42,155 nt of DNA from Caldilineales bacterium (GTDB lineage Bacteria > Chloroflexota > Anaerolineae > J102), in NCBI GenBank assembly GCA_026417535.1, contig JAOADB010000005.1:1-42155 (forward strand), written 5' to 3'. Below are positions 7,155 to 37,379 of this stretch, piece after piece (position 1 is the first letter of the stretch; every line of letters starts with the position of its first letter). The position numbers and the translations under genes were made by a program. The notes below the pieces were generated by a model. It made no database searches. It was not told the origin of the DNA and worked only from the letters and a program-made list of their open reading frames with translations.

Positions 7155-10417
<3,263 letters not shown>

Positions 10418-10463
10418 AGCGGTCGTTTCGTTGTGCGTCTCGTGAGCCAGGACGATGGACGAC

Positions 10464-10502
10464 GGACGAGAGACGGTGGAGATCGGCCACCGTCTCTCGT
10501 CC
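10464..10502. repeat. GACG-rich hairpin (16-bp perfect stem, 7-nt loop), 8 nt downstream of the 10511 stop; possible terminator / REP-like element
   Basis: 10464-10479 GGACGAGAGACGGTGG is the reverse complement of 10487-10502 CCACCGTCTCTCGTCC. Confidence 0.85.
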
Positions 10503-10510
10503 ATCGCCCA

Positions 10511-11224
10511 TCATCGCGATTCCGGGACTATCCATCCCTTGGGGGCCACCCGTTCTCCTTGCCCTGTGAGCAGCCCAATCCCTTGGCGCTGGGCTTCCTC
10601 GATCGCACTGCGGTCAACGCGAATTCCGAAGGCATATACCAAATAGGGCCCTGTCACCTGTCGTTTGGCCAAGCGGCGTTGCCACCCCTCTGACTTCATC
10701 CGATCCGCCCAGGCGCGCACATCGTTCTGGCTCAGACGGGCCTTGGCCTCCACAACCGCCCAAAGAATCTCCCGGTCGGGCGTAGCGACCGGCAACACCA
10801 CATCCAGTTCTCCATCCAGGGCCAGATTGAAGGACTCACCGAGAGGACGGTAGCCCTTTTCTTCCAACACCGAGCGGAGGACTCCGCTGGCCTCGTCTTC
10901 CACGGTGGCGCCGAAGATGGCTTTGAACTGGCCGAACTCCTTTTCCAGTTTGGCGTGAGACTCGCTCAGTTTTTGCAGGCTTATTTCGGTGCGGCGCTGG
11001 GCCTCGGCGAGTTCGGCCATGGCGATTTCGAGTCGTCCGACGCGTTCCTCGGTGCGGCGCTGGGCCTCGGCGAAGGCGCGTTGCTCCTCGCCTAACTGGC
11101 GAACCAGGGCCGGAAGTTCCAGAATTTCATCGGTCAGCACCAGCCGCCGAATTTCGGCCCGCCATTCGGGGTAGTCGTAAAGCAAGCGTACCAGATCGTG
11201 AAAGTCCGTTACCGTGAAAGGCAT
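10511..11224 (-). CDS. Coiled-coil protein with C-terminal PD-(D/E)XK-like nuclease fold (DUF3782-like by memory), 237 aa
   Basis: The N-terminus reads DLVRLLYDYPEWRAEIRRLVLTDEILELP, followed by a coiled coil with a repeated AEAQRRTE. The C-terminal half has LDGELDVVLP...ILWAVVEAKARL, which fits a D...E-x-K nuclease motif. It has its own promoter at 11259-11287. Confidence 0.6.
   Translation of the reverse strand: MPFTVTDFHDLVRLLYDYPEWRAEIRRLVLTDEILELPALVRQLGEEQRAFAEAQRRTEERVGRLEIAMAELAEAQRRTEISLQKLSESHAKLEKEFGQFKAIFGATVEDEASGVLRSVLEEKGYRPLGESFNLALDGELDVVLPVATPDREILWAVVEAKARLSQNDVRAWADRMKSEGWQRRLAKRQVTGPYLVYAFGIRVDRSAIEEAQRQGIGLLTGQGERVAPKGWIVPESR
10986..11073. repeat. 25-nt perfect direct repeat, 63 nt apart, in frame inside the 10511..11224 gene
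   Basis: TCGGTGCGGCGCTGGGCCTCGGCGA occurs at 10986-11010 and again at 11049-11073. It encodes the duplicated AEAQRRTE segment. Confidence 0.85.
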
Positions 11225-11258
11225 GCCTCATTCGTCTCCGCAAGTCTGTTACATGGTG

Positions 11259-11287
11259 AGTATACCCTTTCGCTTGACTTAGTGCAA
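11259..11287 (-). promoter_or_regulatory. Sigma70-like promoter for the 10511..11224 gene
   Basis: On the minus strand: TTGCAC (11282-11287), 17-nt spacer, TATACT (11259-11264). An AT-rich tract lies immediately upstream (UP-element-like). Confidence 0.55.
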
Positions 11288-11420
11288 GTTTTTGATCATA
11301 AAATTTTGTAGATTTGAAAAAAATAGTTGCTTTTGTCGTAATTTAATTTTTTGTTTATTTTTTATTCGGTGCTCATCTTCTAGCGTATTTGTTCTGGTTG
11401 ATGAAAAAAGCGTTCAGGGT
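11270..11420. other. AT-rich island in an otherwise GC-rich window
   Basis: Contains runs such as aaaattttgtagatttgaaaaaaatagttgcttttgtcgtaatttaattttttgtttattttttatt. The only ORF here (11292..11558) has implausible composition. Confidence 0.8.
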
Positions 11421-11474
11421 CAACCGAGATGGTGGAACGGTGGTTATCATGAAACGGAAAGCGGGGCCGGCCCC
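11404..11474 (-). terminator. Weak intrinsic-terminator candidates downstream of nhaA
   Basis: On the minus strand: GGGGCCGGCCCC (11463-11474) followed by GCTTTCCGTTTC. Further on, CGTTC/GAACG (11411-11439) is followed by a TTTTTT run (11404-11409). Both stems are short. Confidence 0.3.
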
Positions 11475-11526
11475 TACACAGGCGAACCGTTGGCCATAAC
11501 GTGTTGGCGGAGAAGCCGCTGTGGAC

Positions 11527-12960
11527 TCATTCCTCGGCTGCCGCCTCGGCTTCGCTGAGCATGGGCACACGCAACAGGATCAGACTGCCTAGCATCCCCG
11601 CCGTCAGAGAGGCCGTCAAGATGGCGAGTTTCGAGACATTGTGCAAGAGCGGGTCGGCACTCGAGGACACCGTCAGGGCCAGGTGGGGTGCATCACGCAG
11701 GACGGCAAAGTCATGCCCGCCAAAGGCCAGGCCGGCGATGAACAACGACATGGTAAAGCCCATTCCCCCTAAACAGGCCACGCCAGCAACGTGCACCCAA
11801 CGGACATTGCGCGGCAATACCGCCAGCTTCAGCTTTACAGCCAGGAAGGTAGCCGTAAAAATGCCAACGAACTTGCCAACGACCAGACCGAAGAAAATGC
11901 CCAATCCTACCGGACTCAACAGGTGGCGCACCATCTCCAGATTGAGGGCCACACCGGCATTCGTAAGGGCAAAGATGGGCATGATCAGGTAGGCCACCCA
12001 GGGATGCAGGATCGTCTCGAACCGATGCAAGGGCGTTTCGACCTGTTTGCAGGCCTGTTCCAATTCGTGGATGGCCATACGTTGGTCCGGGGTAATGATT
12101 TCGTGCCGACCGTGTCCACCATGGTGCTCGAACCAATCCAGGAGCCTGCGACCGCGTTCGAGAAAGGTTTGGGCGTCAATGCGGTTACGCACGGGAATGG
12201 TCATAGCCACCAGTACGCCGGCCACGGTGGCGTGAACGCCGGAGAAAAAGAAATCAATCCAGGTGATCAGTCCCAGAAGGCCATAGACAACCAGGCTACG
12301 CCCTCCCAGGCGATTGAAGATGACCAGCGCCAGTAGAGTGAGTATGCCCAGTTCCAGCGCCAGCATGTTGAGGGTGTCGGTATAGAAGATGGCAATGACG
12401 AGGACAGCGCCGAGGTCATCGGCAATGGCCAGCGCCGTTAGGAAGACCTTGAGCGAAACGGGCACCCGCCGTCCCAACAGTGAAAGCGCACCCAGGGCGA
12501 AGGCAATATCGGTGGCCATAGGGATGCCCCAGCCCCGTTCGCCGGTTCCCCCGTGATTGAACAACACATAGATAAGAGCAGGGACGACCATGCCTCCGGT
12601 CGCAGCCATGATCGGTAAGACGGCCCGCCGTGGGGACGAGAGTTCGCCGATCAGGATTTCCCGCTTGATCTCCAGGCCGACCACGAAGAAAAACACCACC
12701 ATCAGGCCGTCGTTGACCCATTGCGACAACGGCAGATCGAGGGTGAAGAGGGGGTCGAAAGCGACCAGGAAATGCCGATCGAGAAAGTTCATGTACTCCT
12801 GCGACCATGGGGAATTGGCCAACGCCAACCCGATCAGAGCACAGATGAGCAGGACAATGCCACCCGAACCCTCGATTTCGGCGAACCGTTGGAAGGTGCG
12901 TGCCAGCCGCGTAATCGGGGTCGAGGTGTCCACGCCTAGCGGCACGCTTTTGACTTTCAT
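11527..12960 (-). CDS. nhaA: Na+/H+ antiporter NhaA (477 aa with this start)
   Basis: NhaA signatures are present: FAEIEGSGGIVLLICALIGLALANSPW, NDGLMVVFFFVVGLEIKREILIGELSS, GWGIPMATDIAFALG and FLTALAIADDLGAVLVIAIFY. ATG 12960 has GGAG 8 nt upstream. ATG 13029 (MEDKD...) is an alternative start. Confidence 0.9.
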   Translation of the reverse strand: MKVKSVPLGVDTSTPITRLARTFQRFAEIEGSGGIVLLICALIGLALANSPWSQEYMNFLDRHFLVAFDPLFTLDLPLSQWVNDGLMVVFFFVVGLEIKREILIGELSSPRRAVLPIMAATGGMVVPALIYVLFNHGGTGERGWGIPMATDIAFALGALSLLGRRVPVSLKVFLTALAIADDLGAVLVIAIFYTDTLNMLALELGILTLLALVIFNRLGGRSLVVYGLLGLITWIDFFFSGVHATVAGVLVAMTIPVRNRIDAQTFLERGRRLLDWFEHHGGHGRHEIITPDQRMAIHELEQACKQVETPLHRFETILHPWVAYLIMPIFALTNAGVALNLEMVRHLLSPVGLGIFFGLVVGKFVGIFTATFLAVKLKLAVLPRNVRWVHVAGVACLGGMGFTMSLFIAGLAFGGHDFAVLRDAPHLALTVSSSADPLLHNVSKLAILTASLTAGMLGSLILLRVPMLSEAEAAAEE

Positions 12961-13123
12961 CGCAATCACTCCTGGAGGATGGAATGCTCCGGTTGGGGCA
13001 GGAGGCGCAGAACTATCCTTGTCTTCCATGATACCCAACTCCGACGTTAAACGCCCGCTGGGCCGGGGCGTTTCGCGGCATCCGAAACCGACTCGACACC
13101 GGCCCGATGGCGTGCGCCTCTGC

Positions 13124-13480
13124 TCAGCCCACTCTCTGGGGCTCTGGGTGGTCACTGCTTTCCAGCGCCTGCAGGTCATCGCGCAGCGCCTGGCGCAGGG
13201 GAATACCGAGACGATGGGCGGCCGAGCCAAGGGCATGGGAGGTGGCCGGCCCACCAAGCACCAAGAGCACGATGAGAACCAGCCCCTTGGCAAAACCGAG
13301 CGGCGTCAAGGCCACTGTCGCCAGCAACAGGAGCACTACACCGAAAATGCTCACCTTGCCGGTGGCATGCAGGCGGGTGTACACATCGGGCAGGCGCATG
13401 AAACCGAGCACGCCAATAACCGAAAAAGCCGTACCGATGATCACCACGGCAATGGCAAAGAGTTCCAGAACCAGGTTCAT
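13124..13480 (-). CDS. mrpG: Mrp/Mnh monovalent cation/H+ antiporter subunit G
   Basis: IGVLGFMRLPDVYTRLHATGKVSIFGVVLLL and GGPATSHALGSAAHRLGIP match the MnhG pattern (RFPDVYGRLHA..K in Bacillus MrpG). Confidence 0.85.
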   Translation of the reverse strand: MNLVLELFAIAVVIIGTAFSVIGVLGFMRLPDVYTRLHATGKVSIFGVVLLLLATVALTPLGFAKGLVLIVLLVLGGPATSHALGSAAHRLGIPLRQALRDDLQALESSDHPEPQRVG

Positions 13481-13493
13481 GTCGTCATCCCTT

Positions 13494-13772
13494 TCAGAAA
13501 AGTTGCTGGTCGGCGATGTACTTGGTCAGCGCGATGGTGCCGACAAAACTCAGTCCGGCCAGGCCCAGGGCAACGTCAATGTACGTCGGGTTCAGCCAGA
13601 TGAGGGCCACGAGGACGAGCACGGCCAGGATAAGCGTACTCACCAGGTCAGCGCCGATGATGCGGTCAATGACGTTCTCACCGCGCCACACGCGCCACAC
13701 ACACACCACGATCAGGCCAAGATGGATGATGAGAGAACCGTGCAATACGAAAAAGAGAATTTGTTGAGTCAT
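13494..13772 (-). CDS. mrpF: Mrp/Mnh antiporter subunit F
   Basis: 92 aa with three hydrophobic helices. VIDRIIGADLVSTLILAVL...YIDVALGLAGLSFVGTIALTKYI parallels Bacillus MrpF (DRIVALDT...FIGSIALSKFI). No SD is visible upstream. Confidence 0.8.
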   Translation of the reverse strand: MTQQILFFVLHGSLIIHLGLIVVCVWRVWRGENVIDRIIGADLVSTLILAVLVLVALIWLNPTYIDVALGLAGLSFVGTIALTKYIADQQLF

Positions 13773-13798
13773 ACGATATACGAAAGGACAAGGAGTTT

Positions 13799-13868
13799 AG
13801 TAACCAGTAACCAGTAACTAGTAACTAGTAACTGGTTACTAGTTACTAGTTACTGGTTACTGGTTACT
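13799..13868. repeat. 70-nt perfect palindrome built from ten heptads (AGTAACC x2, AGTAACT x3 / GGTTACT, AGTTACT x2, GGTTACT x2) in the mrpE-mrpF spacer
   Basis: 13799-13832 AGTAACCAGTAACCAGTAACTAGTAACTAGTAAC is the exact reverse complement of 13835-13868. The centre is TG (13833-13834). I verified this base by base. Confidence 0.97.
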
Positions 13869-13907
13869 GACAATCGATAAAATTGGCAATTGGTTGCAAT
13901 TATCGGA

Positions 13908-14393
13908 TTAATATAAAATCTTGCTTAACAGCTCGCGACGCATGGCTTGGGCTTGCGCGCTGTATTCGGCCGCATGGGTCACATCGAGACAATGGACGTA
14001 AAGGGTAAATTGCTCATCAATGCCCATGACTAACTCACCAGGCGTTACCGAAATGGCATGGGCGCTGAGGGCTGTGGCCACCTCGTTATGACAACCCGAA
14101 GGGATGGCAATGATACCAGGCCGGATGGGCAACGCCGGATCGAGAACGATGCGAGCCACGTTGATGCCATTTGTGATGATATCCACAGCCAGGATGACGA
14201 GGTAGCGTATCAGGCCCCACAGGGCACCGGGCAGACGCGACAGGCTTCCGGCGCGGGAGCGAGGGGGCACCAGCACCGTGATAATGGCAGCCACAATGAG
14301 ACCGAGAATGAGATTGGCCGGCTCTAGATTGCCGGTGATGGCCAAATAGACGCCGAACAGAACGACGAAGGTGCGCAAAAAGGCCATGACCAT
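13908..14393 (-). CDS. mrpE: Mrp/Mnh antiporter subunit E (161 aa)
   Basis: Starts at ATG 14393 (MVMAFLRTFVV), 2 nt after the mrpD stop. INVARIVLDPALPIRPGIIAIPS...ISVTPGELVMGID...LYVHCLDV parallels Bacillus MrpE (IDVIKIVLSPKMNIQPGIVAVPT...ISLTPGTLSMDF...IYIHAIDV). Confidence 0.85.
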   Translation of the reverse strand: MVMAFLRTFVVLFGVYLAITGNLEPANLILGLIVAAIITVLVPPRSRAGSLSRLPGALWGLIRYLVILAVDIITNGINVARIVLDPALPIRPGIIAIPSGCHNEVATALSAHAISVTPGELVMGIDEQFTLYVHCLDVTHAAEYSAQAQAMRRELLSKILY

Positions 14394-14395
14394 CG

Positions 14396-15877
14396 TCAAA
14401 ACCCCATGACGGCAGCGATATAGGCGTTCGGAGCGAGTAACCAGGCGCTGACAGCGTTGGCCAGGGCCAACAACGGTTCGGGCCACAGGCCCAAGAGCAC
14501 ACACAGCACGATCAGAATCGTCGGAGCCAGCAGCCGATCTCCACCGGGTTTGACCTTGGCGCCAGAAGGGGCCGGTTCCCACCAGATCATCTGAAACGCA
14601 CGGGTGACATAGACCAGGGTGAGGATGCTGGCCACACCGAGAAAGGCCAGCGAAGGATAGGCTGCGGCCAGGATGCCGCTGCGGAACAGAGCGAGCTTGC
14701 CGACAAAGCCGTTCATGGGTGGAATCCCAGCCAAGGCCATCCCACCCAGAAGAAACAGCGCCCCCAGGAAGGGCGCGCCCTTGCCCAGACCGATCAGGTT
14801 GGCAAAAGCGGCCGATTTGACCTCCGCCCGACTCGCTATGGCGCCGGCCAGCATCAGCAAGGCCGCTTTGACCAGGCTGTGGTTCACGGTGAGGATGACG
14901 GCTGCGGCCAGCGCCGATGGCGTCCCCCAGCCGATGGCGACCAGGATAAAGCCGATCTGGGCCAGAGTCGAATAGGCCAGCATCCGCTTGAGATGGTGCG
15001 TTCCCAGCGCCGTGAGTCCGCCAAAAACGATCCCCACCAGACCGAACACAACCAGCCAGTCTTGCAGCATGGCCGCCTGGGGCCGAAAGAGAAGGGTGGT
15101 CATACGCATGAAGCCATAGACCCCCATTTTGACCACCACCGACGAGAGCATGGCGCTGACCGCAGTGGGCGCGGCGGCATGGAAATCGGGTTGCCAGAAG
15201 TGAAAAGGCACCACCGCCGCCTTGATCATGAAGAAGACCAGCATCAGCACGACTGCCGCCGGCACCAGCGGCGGTGAAGGATCGGCCGCCAGGCGTTGGG
15301 CCAGGTCGGCCATGTTCAGCGTGCCGTATGACGCGTACAAGCTGCCCACGGCGCTCAACCAGACGATGGAGGCCAGCAGGCTGATGTAGAAGTACTTATA
15401 AGCCGCCTCGACCCCACTGCGTTCATCGGCCAAGGCCGTAAGCACCGTAGCCGACGCCACCAGCAGCTCGGCAAAAACGAACAGATTGAAAACGTCGCCG
15501 GTGAGGAAGGAACCCGTGAGGGCGGCGGTCAAAAACAGGAACAGCGGATAGAACACGGGAAACGTGACACAGCGATCACGGCAGCCCAGGGCGTAGAGCA
15601 ACCCGGCCATCAGCACGACCTGCGCCATGAGGACGAAGGTCGCTGCCGGCAAATCACCCACCAGGGAGATGCCAAACGGCGCCGGCCAGCCGCCCAGTTG
15701 AAAGACCACCGGCCCGCGACGCCAGGCTTCGGCCAGCAATAGGATGGAACTGAGCAACGAAACGGCCAGTGCGCCCGCCGACCAGGCTGCTTGCCAGCCC
15801 CGCCAACGCCAGAAGAGCAAACCGAGCGTGGCGCCGGCCAGGGGAACGAGAATGGGCAACAGAACGAGGGAAGCCAT
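14396..15877 (-). CDS. mrpD: Mrp/Mnh antiporter subunit D (NuoN/NuoM-like)
   Basis: Polytopic NADH-quinone-oxidoreductase-chain-like sequence. I chose ATG 15877 (MASLVLLPILVPL, like Bacillus MrpD MNNLVILPILIP). The ORF track starts at a TTG (15889) that overlaps the mrpC stop. Confidence 0.85.
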   Translation of the reverse strand: MASLVLLPILVPLAGATLGLLFWRWRGWQAAWSAGALAVSLLSSILLLAEAWRRGPVVFQLGGWPAPFGISLVGDLPAATFVLMAQVVLMAGLLYALGCRDRCVTFPVFYPLFLFLTAALTGSFLTGDVFNLFVFAELLVASATVLTALADERSGVEAAYKYFYISLLASIVWLSAVGSLYASYGTLNMADLAQRLAADPSPPLVPAAVVLMLVFFMIKAAVVPFHFWQPDFHAAAPTAVSAMLSSVVVKMGVYGFMRMTTLLFRPQAAMLQDWLVVFGLVGIVFGGLTALGTHHLKRMLAYSTLAQIGFILVAIGWGTPSALAAAVILTVNHSLVKAALLMLAGAIASRAEVKSAAFANLIGLGKGAPFLGALFLLGGMALAGIPPMNGFVGKLALFRSGILAAAYPSLAFLGVASILTLVYVTRAFQMIWWEPAPSGAKVKPGGDRLLAPTILIVLCVLLGLWPEPLLALANAVSAWLLAPNAYIAAVMGF

Positions 15878-15885
15878 GCACGTGC

Positions 15886-16221
15886 TCAATGTTTCAAATC
15901 GGCGATGGCATCGGCGTCGGCCGTGCGATAACGCATGGCCAGCACATAGAGCAGCGCCAGCACCAACACGAATCCGGCCATGCCGATGACGATGGCCGTG
16001 AGCACCAACGCTTGCGGCAGGGCATCGCTGCGCTGGCCCACGGCATTCACATAGGGGATCACCTTGCCCCGATAGGCGCCAGTCATGAGCAAAAACAGAT
16101 TGACCGCATTCGTGATCACCAGCAGGCCGATGGCCGACCGGATGACATTACGGCGCAACAACTGAAAAAGGCCGATGGCGAACATGGCGCCGACAGCGAT
16201 GGCTTTGAGCAAATCGAGCAT
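15886..16221 (-). CDS. mrpC: Mrp/Mnh antiporter subunit C (NuoK-like)
   Basis: 111 aa with three TM helices (LLRRNVIRSAIGLLVITNAVNLFLL, PQALVLTAIVIGMAGFVLVLALL). GGAG lies 7 nt upstream of ATG 16221. Confidence 0.85.
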   Translation of the reverse strand: MLDLLKAIAVGAMFAIGLFQLLRRNVIRSAIGLLVITNAVNLFLLMTGAYRGKVIPYVNAVGQRSDALPQALVLTAIVIGMAGFVLVLALLYVLAMRYRTADADAIADLKH

Positions 16222-16236
16222 GGGCAGTCTCCAACG

Positions 16237-19140
16237 TCAGGGTTCATCCTGAGGGTGTCCTAGCGCCGCCAACATCAGGGCAACGCCGCCGAGCACCGTC
16301 AGGGCGATGGCCACTTCAAAGAAAAAGGACGAACTAAGCCCGAAGCCGCGCGGCAAGGGCAATCCCAACAGGGCGCCGTAATCCACACGCCCGAAAAACG
16401 AACCGGTCAGCGCCGCCGAGGCGATGCCGTTGCCGAGAGCCAAGGTCAGCGCCATGCCGACCAAGGGGAAGGGACGTAGCCACGGCAGCCGCTGGAGGGT
16501 CTCTTCGTAACCGAAAATGACATACCAAAAGGCAATGACCAAACTGACAATGACCCCGGCCGTGAAACCGTCGCCGGCCTGTTCGTGGCCGTACATGATC
16601 TGGGTGACCGCCACCACCATCATGACCGGCAACAAGATGCGCGCCAGGAGGCGGACGAACGGCGACGAGCGGGGCCCGCCGATGCCCATGATCGCCTTGT
16701 CGCGTAGTTCCCGCACACCTGGCGCCAGGCTGGGATTCTCGGCTTCGGGGGGAGGGGCCAAAACCGCACCGGCTTCGCGGCGGTCGCTCTGTGTGGCATA
16801 ACGCAGCAGGGCATAGACCCCCAGCCCGGCCAGGCTAAAGACGAGGATCTCGATGAGCGTATCGAAACCGCGAAAATCCACGATGATGGCCCCGACGATA
16901 TCGATGGCGCCGGCTAACGGCTTGGCATTGGCCTCGTAATAGGGCGTGACAAGGCTTGGCCGTGGTCGTGAAGCCAGGGCGGCCAGCGTCAGCGCCGCAA
17001 CGGCTACGCCACCCGCCACCGCGATCAGGCCATCGCGCAGCAAACCGCCACGACTCTGGCGGAAGGTCAGCTCCCAGGCCCGGCGTCGTTGTTCGCGTGG
17101 GAGCAGGCTCAGCGCCAGTGTCAGCAGCACCACGCTCAGCAGGTCCACCACCACCTGAACCAGGGCCACATCCGGCGCCAGTTCCAAAACCATGATCGCA
17201 GCCACCCCCAGACTCGAAACACCGAGCGCCAGGATGGCAAAGAAATCGCGCACCAGGAAGATGCTCAAACCTGCCGCGCCAGCGGCCAGGAAAAGGGTAA
17301 AAATCCTCAGGATGGTCAGCTCATCCGGCGGCTCGATGGACAGCACCTCCGGCACGGGCAGACGCCCTTCCCACAGCATGAGGAGCGTCAGCGCCGTCAG
17401 CATGATGGCCAGATAACGGCGCAGCTGCCCCATCTGGAGTCGCGTGCTCAGACGGGCCGCCGCCATCAGCCCTTGAAGGACTTTCTCGTACACGCCGTCG
17501 AAGCTGAACCATGGCCATAACGCCGCTTGCCAACGGCGCACGGGATGACGACCCAACCCGATCAGCGTCCCCAGCGAGACGGCCACGACGCTGAGGACGA
17601 ACGGCACCGTTACCCCGGCCCAAATCGCCAGCGAGACCTTCACCGTCTCGCCGTAGGCCGCCGAGGCCGCCGTCGCCACGAAGGTCGCCAGGGGAATGGG
17701 TTCGGGCAGCAGGCCCAAAACGAGCGAGAGGGCAGCCAGGATGGCCGGGGCCAAGAGCATCCCCAGCGGCGGTTCGTGGCCGTGGATATGGGGGTCGCGC
17801 GGGCGGCCCAAGAACACATCGCTGATCAAAAGCACCGCTTGGGCCAGGAGCAACGCACCCGCGATCACGGTGGCCGTTGTCAGCAGCGTGGCGACCAACG
17901 GCGGCACCTGCGGATGGGTCACCGAGGCCAGCAGGGTCTCTTTGGCCAGAAAGCCGAACAGAGGCGGCAGCCCCGCCATGGACAACGCCGCCGGCGCTGC
18001 TACGGCCAGCGTCAACGGCATGGCCCGACCCAATCCGCCCAACCGGCGCAGGTCGCGTGTGCCCGTCTCGTGGTCCACAATGCCCACGATCAGAAACAGG
18101 GCGCCCTTGTACAACGCATGGGCCAGAATGCTGACGACCACGGCCTTGAAGGCGATGGACGTTTCGGCGCCCACCAGCATGACCATGACGCCGAGCTGAC
18201 TCACGGTGGAATAGGCCAGCAGGGCCTTCAGGTCGTTCTGTTTCAGGCCCAGGTAGGCCCCGGTGAGCATCGTCAGCAGTCCAAACCCGGTCAGAACGGC
18301 AAACCAGGCTTCCGTACCGCCCAAGGCCGGGTGGAAGCGGGCCAGCAGATAGATGCCGGCCTTGACCATGGTGGCCGAATGGAGATAGGCGCTGGCCGGC
18401 GTGGGCGCGGTCATGGCCGCGGGCAACCAGATGTGGGCCGGGGCCTGCGCGCTTTTCGTGAACGCGCCAAAGGCGATCAACCCCAGCACGACCGGATAAA
18501 GCGGACTCGTGGTCAACAGGTCCCGGCGGCTCAGGATGGTCGGATAATCGGCGCCGCCAGCCAGGACGGCCACGAACACGAGACCCGCCAGCAGGGCAAT
18601 GCCACCGCCGCTGGTGATGAACAGCGCCTTGAAGGCTCCACGCCGGGCTTCCTCGTCTTTCGTCTTGTAGCCGATGAGCAGAAACGAGGTGATGCTGGTC
18701 CCTTCCCAGAAGACGAACAGGGTGATGACATCGCCTGCCAGCACCAGGCCCAGCATGCTCGTCATGAACAGGAGGAGATAGGTCAGAAAACGCCAGGCGC
18801 TGCCATCCCCTCGGAAGTAATAGCCCGTGTAAATGACGACCAACGCGCCGATGCCGCTGACGAGAAGGGCGAACAGGGCACCGAGACCGTCGAGATAGAG
18901 CACGGCGGCCATGTCCAACGAAGGCATCCAGTCCGTGCGCCAGACCAGAGCGGCACCGCCAAGCACCGACGGCAGCCGGGATAGGAGGAAGACGAAGGCC
19001 GTCAGCGGCGCCAGGGCCACCAGCCAGGCTGCCTGTACCGTACTCAGGCGGCGATTGAACGCCGGCAGCCCCCACAATGCGGCCAGCCCGGCGCCGATCA
19101 GGCTCAAGACAAGGGGCAAGACCAGCAGTGCGTCGCGCAT
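16237..19140 (-). CDS. mrpA: Mrp/Mnh antiporter subunit A fused to subunit B (967 aa)
   Basis: NuoL-like N-terminal and central region. The C-terminal ~140 aa carry the MnhB-type motif YGHEQAGDGFTAGVIVS (compare GHxxPGGGFxGG). The length fits an A/B fusion, and there is no separate mrpB ORF. Confidence 0.85.
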   Translation of the reverse strand: MRDALLVLPLVLSLIGAGLAALWGLPAFNRRLSTVQAAWLVALAPLTAFVFLLSRLPSVLGGAALVWRTDWMPSLDMAAVLYLDGLGALFALLVSGIGALVVIYTGYYFRGDGSAWRFLTYLLLFMTSMLGLVLAGDVITLFVFWEGTSITSFLLIGYKTKDEEARRGAFKALFITSGGGIALLAGLVFVAVLAGGADYPTILSRRDLLTTSPLYPVVLGLIAFGAFTKSAQAPAHIWLPAAMTAPTPASAYLHSATMVKAGIYLLARFHPALGGTEAWFAVLTGFGLLTMLTGAYLGLKQNDLKALLAYSTVSQLGVMVMLVGAETSIAFKAVVVSILAHALYKGALFLIVGIVDHETGTRDLRRLGGLGRAMPLTLAVAAPAALSMAGLPPLFGFLAKETLLASVTHPQVPPLVATLLTTATVIAGALLLAQAVLLISDVFLGRPRDPHIHGHEPPLGMLLAPAILAALSLVLGLLPEPIPLATFVATAASAAYGETVKVSLAIWAGVTVPFVLSVVAVSLGTLIGLGRHPVRRWQAALWPWFSFDGVYEKVLQGLMAAARLSTRLQMGQLRRYLAIMLTALTLLMLWEGRLPVPEVLSIEPPDELTILRIFTLFLAAGAAGLSIFLVRDFFAILALGVSSLGVAAIMVLELAPDVALVQVVVDLLSVVLLTLALSLLPREQRRRAWELTFRQSRGGLLRDGLIAVAGGVAVAALTLAALASRPRPSLVTPYYEANAKPLAGAIDIVGAIIVDFRGFDTLIEILVFSLAGLGVYALLRYATQSDRREAGAVLAPPPEAENPSLAPGVRELRDKAIMGIGGPRSSPFVRLLARILLPVMMVVAVTQIMYGHEQAGDGFTAGVIVSLVIAFWYVIFGYEETLQRLPWLRPFPLVGMALTLALGNGIASAALTGSFFGRVDYGALLGLPLPRGFGLSSSFFFEVAIALTVLGGVALMLAALGHPQDEP

Positions 19141-24362: not shown

Positions 24363-24372
24363 AGGCGATGAT

Positions 24373-24428
24373 GGTAACTCGTAACTGGTGACTGGCGACT
24401 GGTGACTGGTGAATGGTGAATGGTGAAT
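24373..24428. repeat. Tandem array of eight heptads (GGTAACT CGTAACT GGTGACT GGCGACT GGTGACT GGTGAAT x3), 10 nt upstream of the 24362 start codon
   Basis: Read directly; the 7-nt period is unbroken for 56 nt. It is followed by the small palindrome GTGTAAAAACAC (24429-24440). Confidence 0.95.
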
Positions 24429-24463
24429 GTGTAAAAACACAAACAACGAAAACGGATGCAATG

Positions 24464-24491
24464 ACCAGTAACCAATCACCAGTTACCACTC
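24464..24491. repeat. Four heptads in inverse orientation (ACCAGTA ACCAATC ACCAGTT ACCACTC) overlapping the 3' end of the cysteine desulfurase gene
   Basis: The reverse complement of 24464-24487 (GGTAACTGGTGATTGGTTACTGGT) matches 24373-24396 at about 19/24. The last codons SGNW-stop of the desulfurase are made of these heptads. Confidence 0.85.
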
Positions 24492-37338: not shown

Positions 37339-37379
37339 CGAAGGACGGACGACGAAGCCCATCCGTCGTCCGTCCTTCG
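37339..37379. repeat. GACG-rich hairpin (16-bp perfect stem, 9-nt loop) between the membrane-protein gene and the kinase gene
   Basis: 37339-37354 CGAAGGACGGACGACG is the reverse complement of 37364-37379 CGTCGTCCGTCCTTCG. Confidence 0.9.

Follow-up and report, generated by a model that had tools for sequence, protein, structure and literature searches.

A copy-number-variable palindromic heptad array between mrpE and mrpF of a Caldilineales bacterium, probably a by-product of replication

A 70-nt perfect palindrome built of ten heptads lies between mrpE and mrpF in the window, i.e. the whole stretch of DNA analysed here (42,155 nt). This palindrome is real and well above chance, and part of what the earlier note read into it is supported. 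Its best explanation, to which a probability of about 0.65 is given, is that of a hypervariable, STRR-like heptad repeat that would have become palindromic via slippage and template switching, a mutational by-product and not a dedicated mrp switch. Since copy number drifts between close strains and equivalent elements lie between unrelated genes, an effect incidental to a mutationally driven repeat is favoured over a selected regulator. Moreover, as the array is one of many fast-changing heptad repeats in gene spacers of this bacterium and its relatives, a by-product of DNA replication is more likely than a switch of mrp.

Anatomy of the palindrome and its place in the mrp cluster

The element and the genes around it are as follows.

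13799-13868, no strand assigned: palindromic heptad array, ten in-phase units, 70 nt (repeat search, TRF, fold energies)
13799-13832, no strand assigned: left arm, 34 nt (repeat search)
13833-13834, no strand assigned: 2-nt asymmetric centre, TG on the + strand and CA on the mRNA strand (repeat search, allele comparison)
13835-13868, no strand assigned: right arm, 34 nt (repeat search)
11527-19140, minus strand: co-directional cluster mrpA(B)-C-D-E-F-G-nhaA, interrupted by the element (Pfam, junctions)
16237-19140, minus strand: mrpA(B) (Pfam)
15886-16221, minus strand: mrpC (Pfam)
14396-15877, minus strand: mrpD (Pfam)
13908-14393, minus strand: mrpE, 161 aa, PF01899 (Pfam)
13494-13772, minus strand: mrpF, 92 aa, PF04066 (Pfam)
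13124-13480, minus strand: mrpG (Pfam), with nhaA next in the cluster
13773-13907, minus strand: mrpE-mrpF spacer, 135 nt, 36% GC (sequence reading, composition)

An earlier note on this DNA had described a perfect palindrome of ten heptads with GTAAC/GTTAC cores. This description was borne out by the repeat search, in which the two arms are 100% complementary and 2 nt apart, and by TRF, which reported a tandem head-to-tail array of period 7 with 8.1 copies and 90% matches. Read in register on the + strand, the 70 nt are AGTAACC AGTAACC AGTAACT AGTAACT AGTAACT GGTTACT AGTTACT AGTTACT GGTTACT GGTTACT. The pattern GTNACNNGTNAC is matched 12 times in the window, where shuffles predict 0.16, and nine of the 12 fall inside the element.

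The unit, AGT-N-ACY, is quasi-palindromic in its own right, with GTNAC at its core and ACTAGT created where AGTAACT units join head to tail. The reverse complement of AGTAACT is AGTTACT, the centre base being the sole difference, and even a simple direct repetition of the unit is self-complementary to about 6/7. At the midpoint of the 70-nt array the centre base passes from A to T, and the CC/CT unit variants are mirrored across it. Because the unit is quasi-palindromic, the palindrome can also be read as a direct heptad array with an A-to-T flip of the centre base halfway along.

The mRNA hairpin was expected in the earlier note to be very stable, and the fold calculations agree: the RNA form reaches -53.7 kcal/mol and the DNA form -34.6 kcal/mol (z of about -11.9 for both), and none of 200 shuffles folds as well. 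At 65 °C the helix is still at -30 kcal/mol.

Pfam assignments confirmed the mrp context of the element. The contrast between its spacer and the other junctions of the operon also holds, the E-F junction measuring 135 nt against 15 nt for A-C, 8 for C-D (or -4 with a TTG start), 2 for D-E and 13 for F-G. The GC content of this spacer is 36%, compared with 65% in the window, and stop codons occur in all three frames across it, in keeping with a non-coding intergenic sequence. On the mRNA, the helix begins 39 nt past the mrpE stop codon and is followed by a 26-nt pyrimidine/AU-rich leader, so placed that the start region of mrpF remains uncovered. The mrpF start codon is supported by homologues, which align from residue 1-3. 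No unusual structure is predicted for the 163-nt spacer between mrpG and nhaA (z = -0.04). The relatives of MrpD are Chloroflexota MAGs labelled Caldilineales, Anaerolineae, Thermoflexales and Roseilinea, and the best species representative is 82% identical.

Scored with an assumed generic anti-SD (ACCUCCUUU), which may differ from the end of the host's own 16S rRNA, the best duplex at mrpF is +0.6 kcal/mol against -5.3 to -6.9 at mrpC, mrpE, mrpG and nhaA, in line with the earlier remark that mrpF has no SD. By the same scoring, mrpA and mrpD likewise have no good SD.

A long, stable stem within an unusually long spacer could suggest a terminator or attenuator splitting the cluster into mrpACDE and mrpFG-nhaA, and a transcription block was among the roles first proposed for the hairpin. 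However, neither strand carries a U-tract past the stem (AAACUCCUUGUCC on the mRNA strand, GACAAUCG on the other), and the stem is 36% GC, not the GC-rich stem of an intrinsic terminator. Scanning this spacer, and the cluster as a whole, for promoters and terminators gave no terminator-like or promoter-like call in the mrpE-mrpF spacer, and in particular no sigma-70-like promoter downstream of the stem to drive mrpF. In addition, the Mrp of Bacillus needs all of its subunits for activity, which also speaks against such a split. A terminator is thus highly improbable, and transcription most likely reads through.

Alleles of the array in close strains and next relatives

A MrpF protein identical to that of the window is encoded in the MAG assemblies GCA_025056665.1 and GCA_033578935.1 and in several Logan contigs. 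The two MAGs, which are independent assemblies, are 99.5-99.65% identical to the window. In both, the spacer measures 100 nt and its five heptads, AGTAACC AGTAACT AGTAACT AGTTACT GGTTACT, form a perfect palindrome (17+1+17).

The Logan contigs carrying the mrpE-mrpF site are 94.8% identical to the window. Each of the six inspected breaks off no more than 14 nt from the centre, three per side: the three right-hand contigs begin 8-14 nt before the centre, and the three left-hand contigs, read via the MrpE cluster P0001, end 8 nt past it. Their minimal merge, a partial allele of at least six units joined from contigs broken at the centre, reads AGTAACC AGTAACT AGTAACT GGTTACT GGTTACT GGTTACT (3+3 units). 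It has 20-nt arms with one G.T mismatch, and its centre on the mRNA strand is TG versus CA in the window, i.e. inverted.

The earlier note had proposed to compare related strains for presence/absence and copy-number variation of the array, and both were found. Copy number is 10 in the window, 5 in the 99.5% strains and at least 6 in the 94.8% lineage, all as given by short-read assemblies in which repeats could be collapsed. The spacers of the next relatives have no heptads; they measure 33 nt (L006), 44 nt and 29 nt, the latter two next to MrpE homologues of 76% and 72% identity. Given this absence, the array arose within this species-level lineage. The suggestion that zero mismatches imply recent origin or active maintenance is consistent with these data, the array being absent in the nearest other species and two of the three close-strain alleles being perfect palindromes despite their unlike copy numbers. 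Going by the alleles compared, the copy number of the array appears to have changed several times while 0.5% of bases changed. The strains that differ by five heptads at mrpE-mrpF show no difference in a GC-rich hairpin 3 kb from there.

Breakage of every inspected Logan contig at the centre, together with unlike copy numbers between assemblies, would fit an assembly artefact, i.e. a fold-back or a mis-counted repeat, since tandem or palindromic repeats may be collapsed or wrongly joined by assemblers working from short reads. However, a heptad palindrome with unique flanks on both sides is present not only in the window but also in two independent MAG assemblies and several Logan samples, and simply doubling the short allele would not give that of the window. 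There is thus very little probability that the element is an artefact.

The allele series points to concerted evolution of the two palindrome arms. Template switching is documented to homogenise the arms of inverted repeats and to invert the spacer between them (PMC8604942), and to create and maintain RNA hairpins (PMC8794818); quasipalindrome template-switch mutagenesis is also documented in PMC7202029. The element resembles the products of this process in its identical arms (two alleles) and its inverted centre (the third), the likeness being to a mechanism and not to an element family. From these features we infer a template-switch origin of the palindrome. Replication slippage would alter the number of heptads, and intrastrand template switching ('quasipalindrome correction') would copy one arm from the other, giving perfect arms and possibly an inverted centre. 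The array would sit in the mrpE-mrpF spacer because this spacer tolerates it, not because mrp needs it.

Heptad arrays in the window, in related Chloroflexota and in metagenomes

The element does not stand alone in the window, which has at least two further heptad-based hairpins.

24372-24491, no strand assigned: heptad-based inverted array of the TGGTRAC/CAGTAAC type, arms 79% complementary, 29-nt loop (TRF, repeat search, fold)
10451-10515, minus strand: hairpin of GGACGAT/ATCGTCC-type heptads, 29-bp stem (TRF; fold -58.2 kcal/mol, z = -9.1)

The first consists of eight TGGTAAC/TGGTGAC/TGGTGAA units, the loop, and CAATGAC CAGTAAC CAATCAC CAGTTAC, and folds as RNA at -47.3 kcal/mol (z = -6.1). 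It sits between a class-V aminotransferase gene, the stop codon of which falls inside one arm, and a phosphodiesterase-family gene without SD, ending 9 nt ahead of the ATG of the latter (24362). Its last 29 nt, which are all that Logan contig L216 of the 95% lineage covers, are identical to the window; a search for the exact product of the adjoining 551-aa gene found no record for strain comparison. The second hairpin begins on the stop codon of a hypothetical gene (10511-11224), upstream of carB, whose real start lies near 10417, and it is unchanged in strain L001. Furthermore, a perfect 16-bp stem, CGAAGGACGGACGACG / CGTCGTCCGTCCTTCG, at 37339-37379 has the GGACGA motif in common with the carB-upstream hairpin; it falls within a long ORF on the minus strand, that of a HisKA_3 histidine kinase with domains confined to residues 439-635. 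As 42 kb of the genome were surveyed, a 'genome-wide family' here means three or four loci plus relatives.

The hypothetical gene 10511-11224 also contains a repeat of about 88 nt at 10985-11086, in which GGTGCGGCGCTGGGCCTCGGCGA is present twice. This repeat offsets the blastn alignments with L002 and L003, and its copy number may vary among strains. The spacer between nhaA and the same gene (11225-11526, 300 nt) is very AT-rich and rich in T-runs against the 65% GC background.

Among the tandem arrays in 1.41 Mb of related Chloroflexota loci, those of period 7 are the most numerous, with 73 versus 7, 24, 7 and 7 for periods 5, 8, 10 and 11, respectively. The same sequence holds 81 perfect hairpins with a stem of at least 12 bp, 14 of them with period-7 arms, and the 34-bp stem of the window is the longest. 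Perfect heptad palindromes of 17-22 bp occur in L075, L047, L059 and L018. Heptad arrays are also found inside other mrp operons, at the C-D junction in L009, L010, L011, L016 and L052, at D-E in L037, at E-F in L047 and L059, and at F-G in L016 and L047; the units differ between loci and between species. A palindromic heptad array in an mrp operon is therefore not the singular case it had seemed, since every mrp junction is occupied in related Chloroflexota by heptad arrays and strong hairpins.

When 79 related loci were compared, the spacers folding at -25 kcal/mol or lower numbered 12, 6, 13, 15 and 12 for A-C, C-D, D-E, E-F and F-G, and the sequences of the hairpin spacers were unrelated to one another. 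In their frequency of strong hairpins the five junctions are about alike, and mrpE-mrpF was rejected as a special hairpin site. Nor are perfect hairpins enriched in mrp operons, which hold 21% of the 81 hairpins in 34% of the sequence.

These comparisons bear on the possibility that the hairpin is a selected intercistronic regulator setting the MrpA-E : MrpF-G-NhaA ratio, as an RNase III site, a stabiliser or an uncoupler, with copy number as a heritable rheostat. Such a role would agree with an array that is present and palindromic in every clade member seen at 95% identity at least, with an mrpF that has no SD and lies 135 nt from mrpE where all other junctions are 15 nt or less, with a helix very stable even at 65 °C, and with the many relatives that have some strong hairpin in the E-F spacer. 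The palindromic array has been kept at this site across lineages 5% apart in DNA, which could reflect selection and not mutational bias. Nevertheless, copy number differs two-fold between strains 99.5% identical, the nearest other species lack the array, hairpins in the relatives are found equally at all junctions and not enriched in mrp operons, and similar elements lie between unrelated genes of the window. We therefore regard a selected regulator as unlikely, and retain a mutationally driven repeat as the preferred explanation.

In metagenomes, the pattern GTAACYRGTAACYRGTAAC was found on at least 120 contigs with GC contents of 24-71%, about 10 of which, among the matches listed, carry both orientations side by side. 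From this range, the GTAAC-type heptad is taken to be widespread, its palindromic form being a recurrent minority. Flips of the centre base in other GTAAC arrays were also counted: 15 are A to T, 9 A to G and 9 A to C. As A-to-T flips are only slightly in excess, the general support for template switching from these arrays is weak, and a dominance of such flips was dropped as evidence.

Several other repeats came to light in the related loci. The mrpE-mrpF spacers of two Anaerolineae MAGs (L011, 4611-4676; L028, 11974-12039) share a near-identical perfect hairpin of 22-23 bp with the core ACAAACCAGGTTTCTC.GAGAAACCTGGTTTGT, and a similar hairpin, ..TTTCTCGGAGAAA.., occurs in L072, which hints at a further family of dispersed palindromic repeats in the class. 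A 16-bp perfect palindrome, ACGTGCCAGGCACTTCSGAAGTGCCTGGCACGT, is present in L013 (3417-3449 and 14194-14226), L016 (5473-5505) and L047 (4523-4555); three of its four copies were flagged, on a tblastn basis, as lying inside mrp coding sequence, which would be unusual for a palindrome. Arrays of the unit TACGCAA / AATACGC occur in at least six Anaerolineae genomes (L009, L010, L016, L022, L037, L060), often just upstream of mrpD, and by this recurrence some heptad families appear to be common to several genera. The mrp operons of L047 (JAYTNY010000126.1, labelled Roseobacter sp.), L056, L062 and L083 are 57-59% identical to Chloroflexota ones, under bin labels of Roseobacter, Desulfobacterales or Phycisphaeraceae. 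As L047 also carries typical heptad hairpins, it may be mis-binned.

Known repeat families and possible effects on the mrp transcript

The STRR units of Calothrix, said to have been described by Mazel et al. in 1990, are reportedly CCCCAGT, TTGGTCA and CAACAGT, and AGTAACY is not among them. STRR in this strict sense does not apply to the element, whose host is Caldilineales/Anaerolineae-like with 65% GC and whose unit is AGTAACY. The resemblance to STRR put forward in the earlier note thus stands for the general class of tandem heptanucleotide repeats, but not for the host, a 65% GC Chloroflexota MAG and not a heterocystous cyanobacterium. The STRR of heterocystous cyanobacteria (cited in PMC4692102) are like the element in being tandem heptanucleotides, non-coding, sometimes in transcribed regions and strain-variable in length; the perfect palindrome sets the element apart. 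The STRR are also dispersed over several loci, as the element may be, judging by the related heptad hairpins within the 42 kb.

Parallels are also provided by the intergenic heptamers of Xanthomonas and Nostoc, whose length varies among close relatives and among which inverted pairs occur (Rehm et al. 2015, PMC4692102). In Nostoc, a 26-copy heptamer array lies between pecE and pecF (PMC4692102). These GGGAATC / GGGGAYT arrays are like the element in being intergenic heptamers of variable length, one of them intra-operon, with inverted pairs capable of forming stem-loops. However, their units are G-rich and quadruplex-forming (PMC4692102), whereas the mrpE-mrpF unit is AT-rich and self-complementary and the arms of its array abut without mismatch. 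Regulatory effects of the Nostoc heptamer repeats have been suggested, not resolved (bioRxiv 10.1101/2022.06.06.494920). More generally, heptamer SSRs are over-represented in bacteria, Chloroflexi included (7n3 median +1.00, Table 2 of PMC4060949); a literature search found no paper dedicated to heptamer repeats in Chloroflexota. On these likenesses, the element is of an STRR-like heptanucleotide kind already on record.

TAACTGA repeats occur upstream of SD-poor start codons in marine Beggiatoaceae, cyanobacteria and Bacteroidetes (MacGregor 2015, PMC4679880), and ssRNA-binding proteins (S1, cold-shock, CsrA-like) have been proposed for them (PMC4679880). The mrpE-mrpF array could by analogy be the binding array of a heptad-reading protein, acting on ssRNA or on DNA and controlling initiation at the SD-less mrpF. 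Its unit, TAACTAG/TAACCAG, is close to TAACTGA, both kinds are intergenic and precede start codons in spacers without SD, those of Beggiatoaceae immediately precede start codons in a setting poor in SD sites (PMC4679880), and the 24372-24491 array ends 9 nt before an ATG. On the other hand, TAACTGA sets are nearly always direct (1 of 170 inverted), comprise 2-6 copies and end one or a few nt before the start (PMC4679880), whereas the mrpE-mrpF palindrome has ten units and leaves 26 nt to the ATG. Moreover, a perfect palindrome would sequester its heptads in duplex, and units vary among loci and species. A heptad-binding protein is accordingly held to be distinctly improbable, and the mutational account is again preferred.

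No Rfam 15 family reached its gathering threshold; the only matches were eukaryotic miRNA-precursor hairpins, the best at 51.9 bits against a cut-off of 74. An integron attC was rejected, as the ends AGTAACC/GGTTACT do not fit RYYYAAC/GTTRRRY and the flanking mrp genes are syntenic in all relatives. REP/BIME in enterobacteria and Correia elements in Neisseria are repeated palindromes between genes of one operon; the REP mRNA hairpin of malE-malF shields the upstream mRNA from 3' exonucleases, and Correia elements are cut by RNase III. Both have a family consensus and transposase-linked spread (RAYT, terminal inverted repeats, TA duplication), whereas the element is a simple-sequence repeat whose own sequence shows no such hallmarks. 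The 5' GTAG tetranucleotide, a hallmark of REP/BIME next to a RAYT gene in the genome, does not occur within the 70-nt element. On sequence hallmarks, a MITE reading was rejected and a REP reading is unlikely.

A by-product of replication may still have effects on the transcript that carries it. A perfect helix of 33 bp in the polycistronic mrp mRNA would remove translational coupling between mrpE and mrpF, which overlap or lie close together in some relatives. In a model of this kind, the helix probably uncouples mrpF from mrpE, and mrpF would initiate on its own from the SD-less, U/C-rich leader. The length of the helix would suffice for an RNase III substrate or for a 3'-exonuclease barrier, and the mrpA-E part of the transcript may outlast or outnumber the mrpF-G-nhaA part, an effect that would grow with copy number. 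A block to translation and the extrusion of a DNA cruciform, both raised in the earlier note, would be further possible effects. Extended to the whole phylum, Chloroflexota would possess self-homogenising, copy-number-variable dsRNA elements, kept perfect in their arms by template switching, lying between the cistrons of operons for multi-subunit complexes such as mrp, and acting through RNase III or exonuclease block as heritable rheostats of subunit stoichiometry; this extension is speculative and we give it little credence.

The practical lesson is one of caution: a conspicuous palindrome without mismatches may lie in an operon and yet have no regulatory role. The most useful aspect of the element is its allele series of 5, at least 6 and 10 units, a natural illustration of the way in which long hairpins with perfect stems could be built up and preserved by slippage and template switching. 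Among the tandem repeats of Anaerolineae-type Chloroflexota, heptad arrays are the dominant class; they often come as inverted pairs and commonly lie inside operons. They cause assembly breaks and may affect relative cistron expression in organisms known almost only from MAGs. If copy number tunes MrpF-G-NhaA relative to MrpA-E, the element would show, in a simple and testable way, how a repeat can drive variation in the expression of a complex for ion homeostasis.
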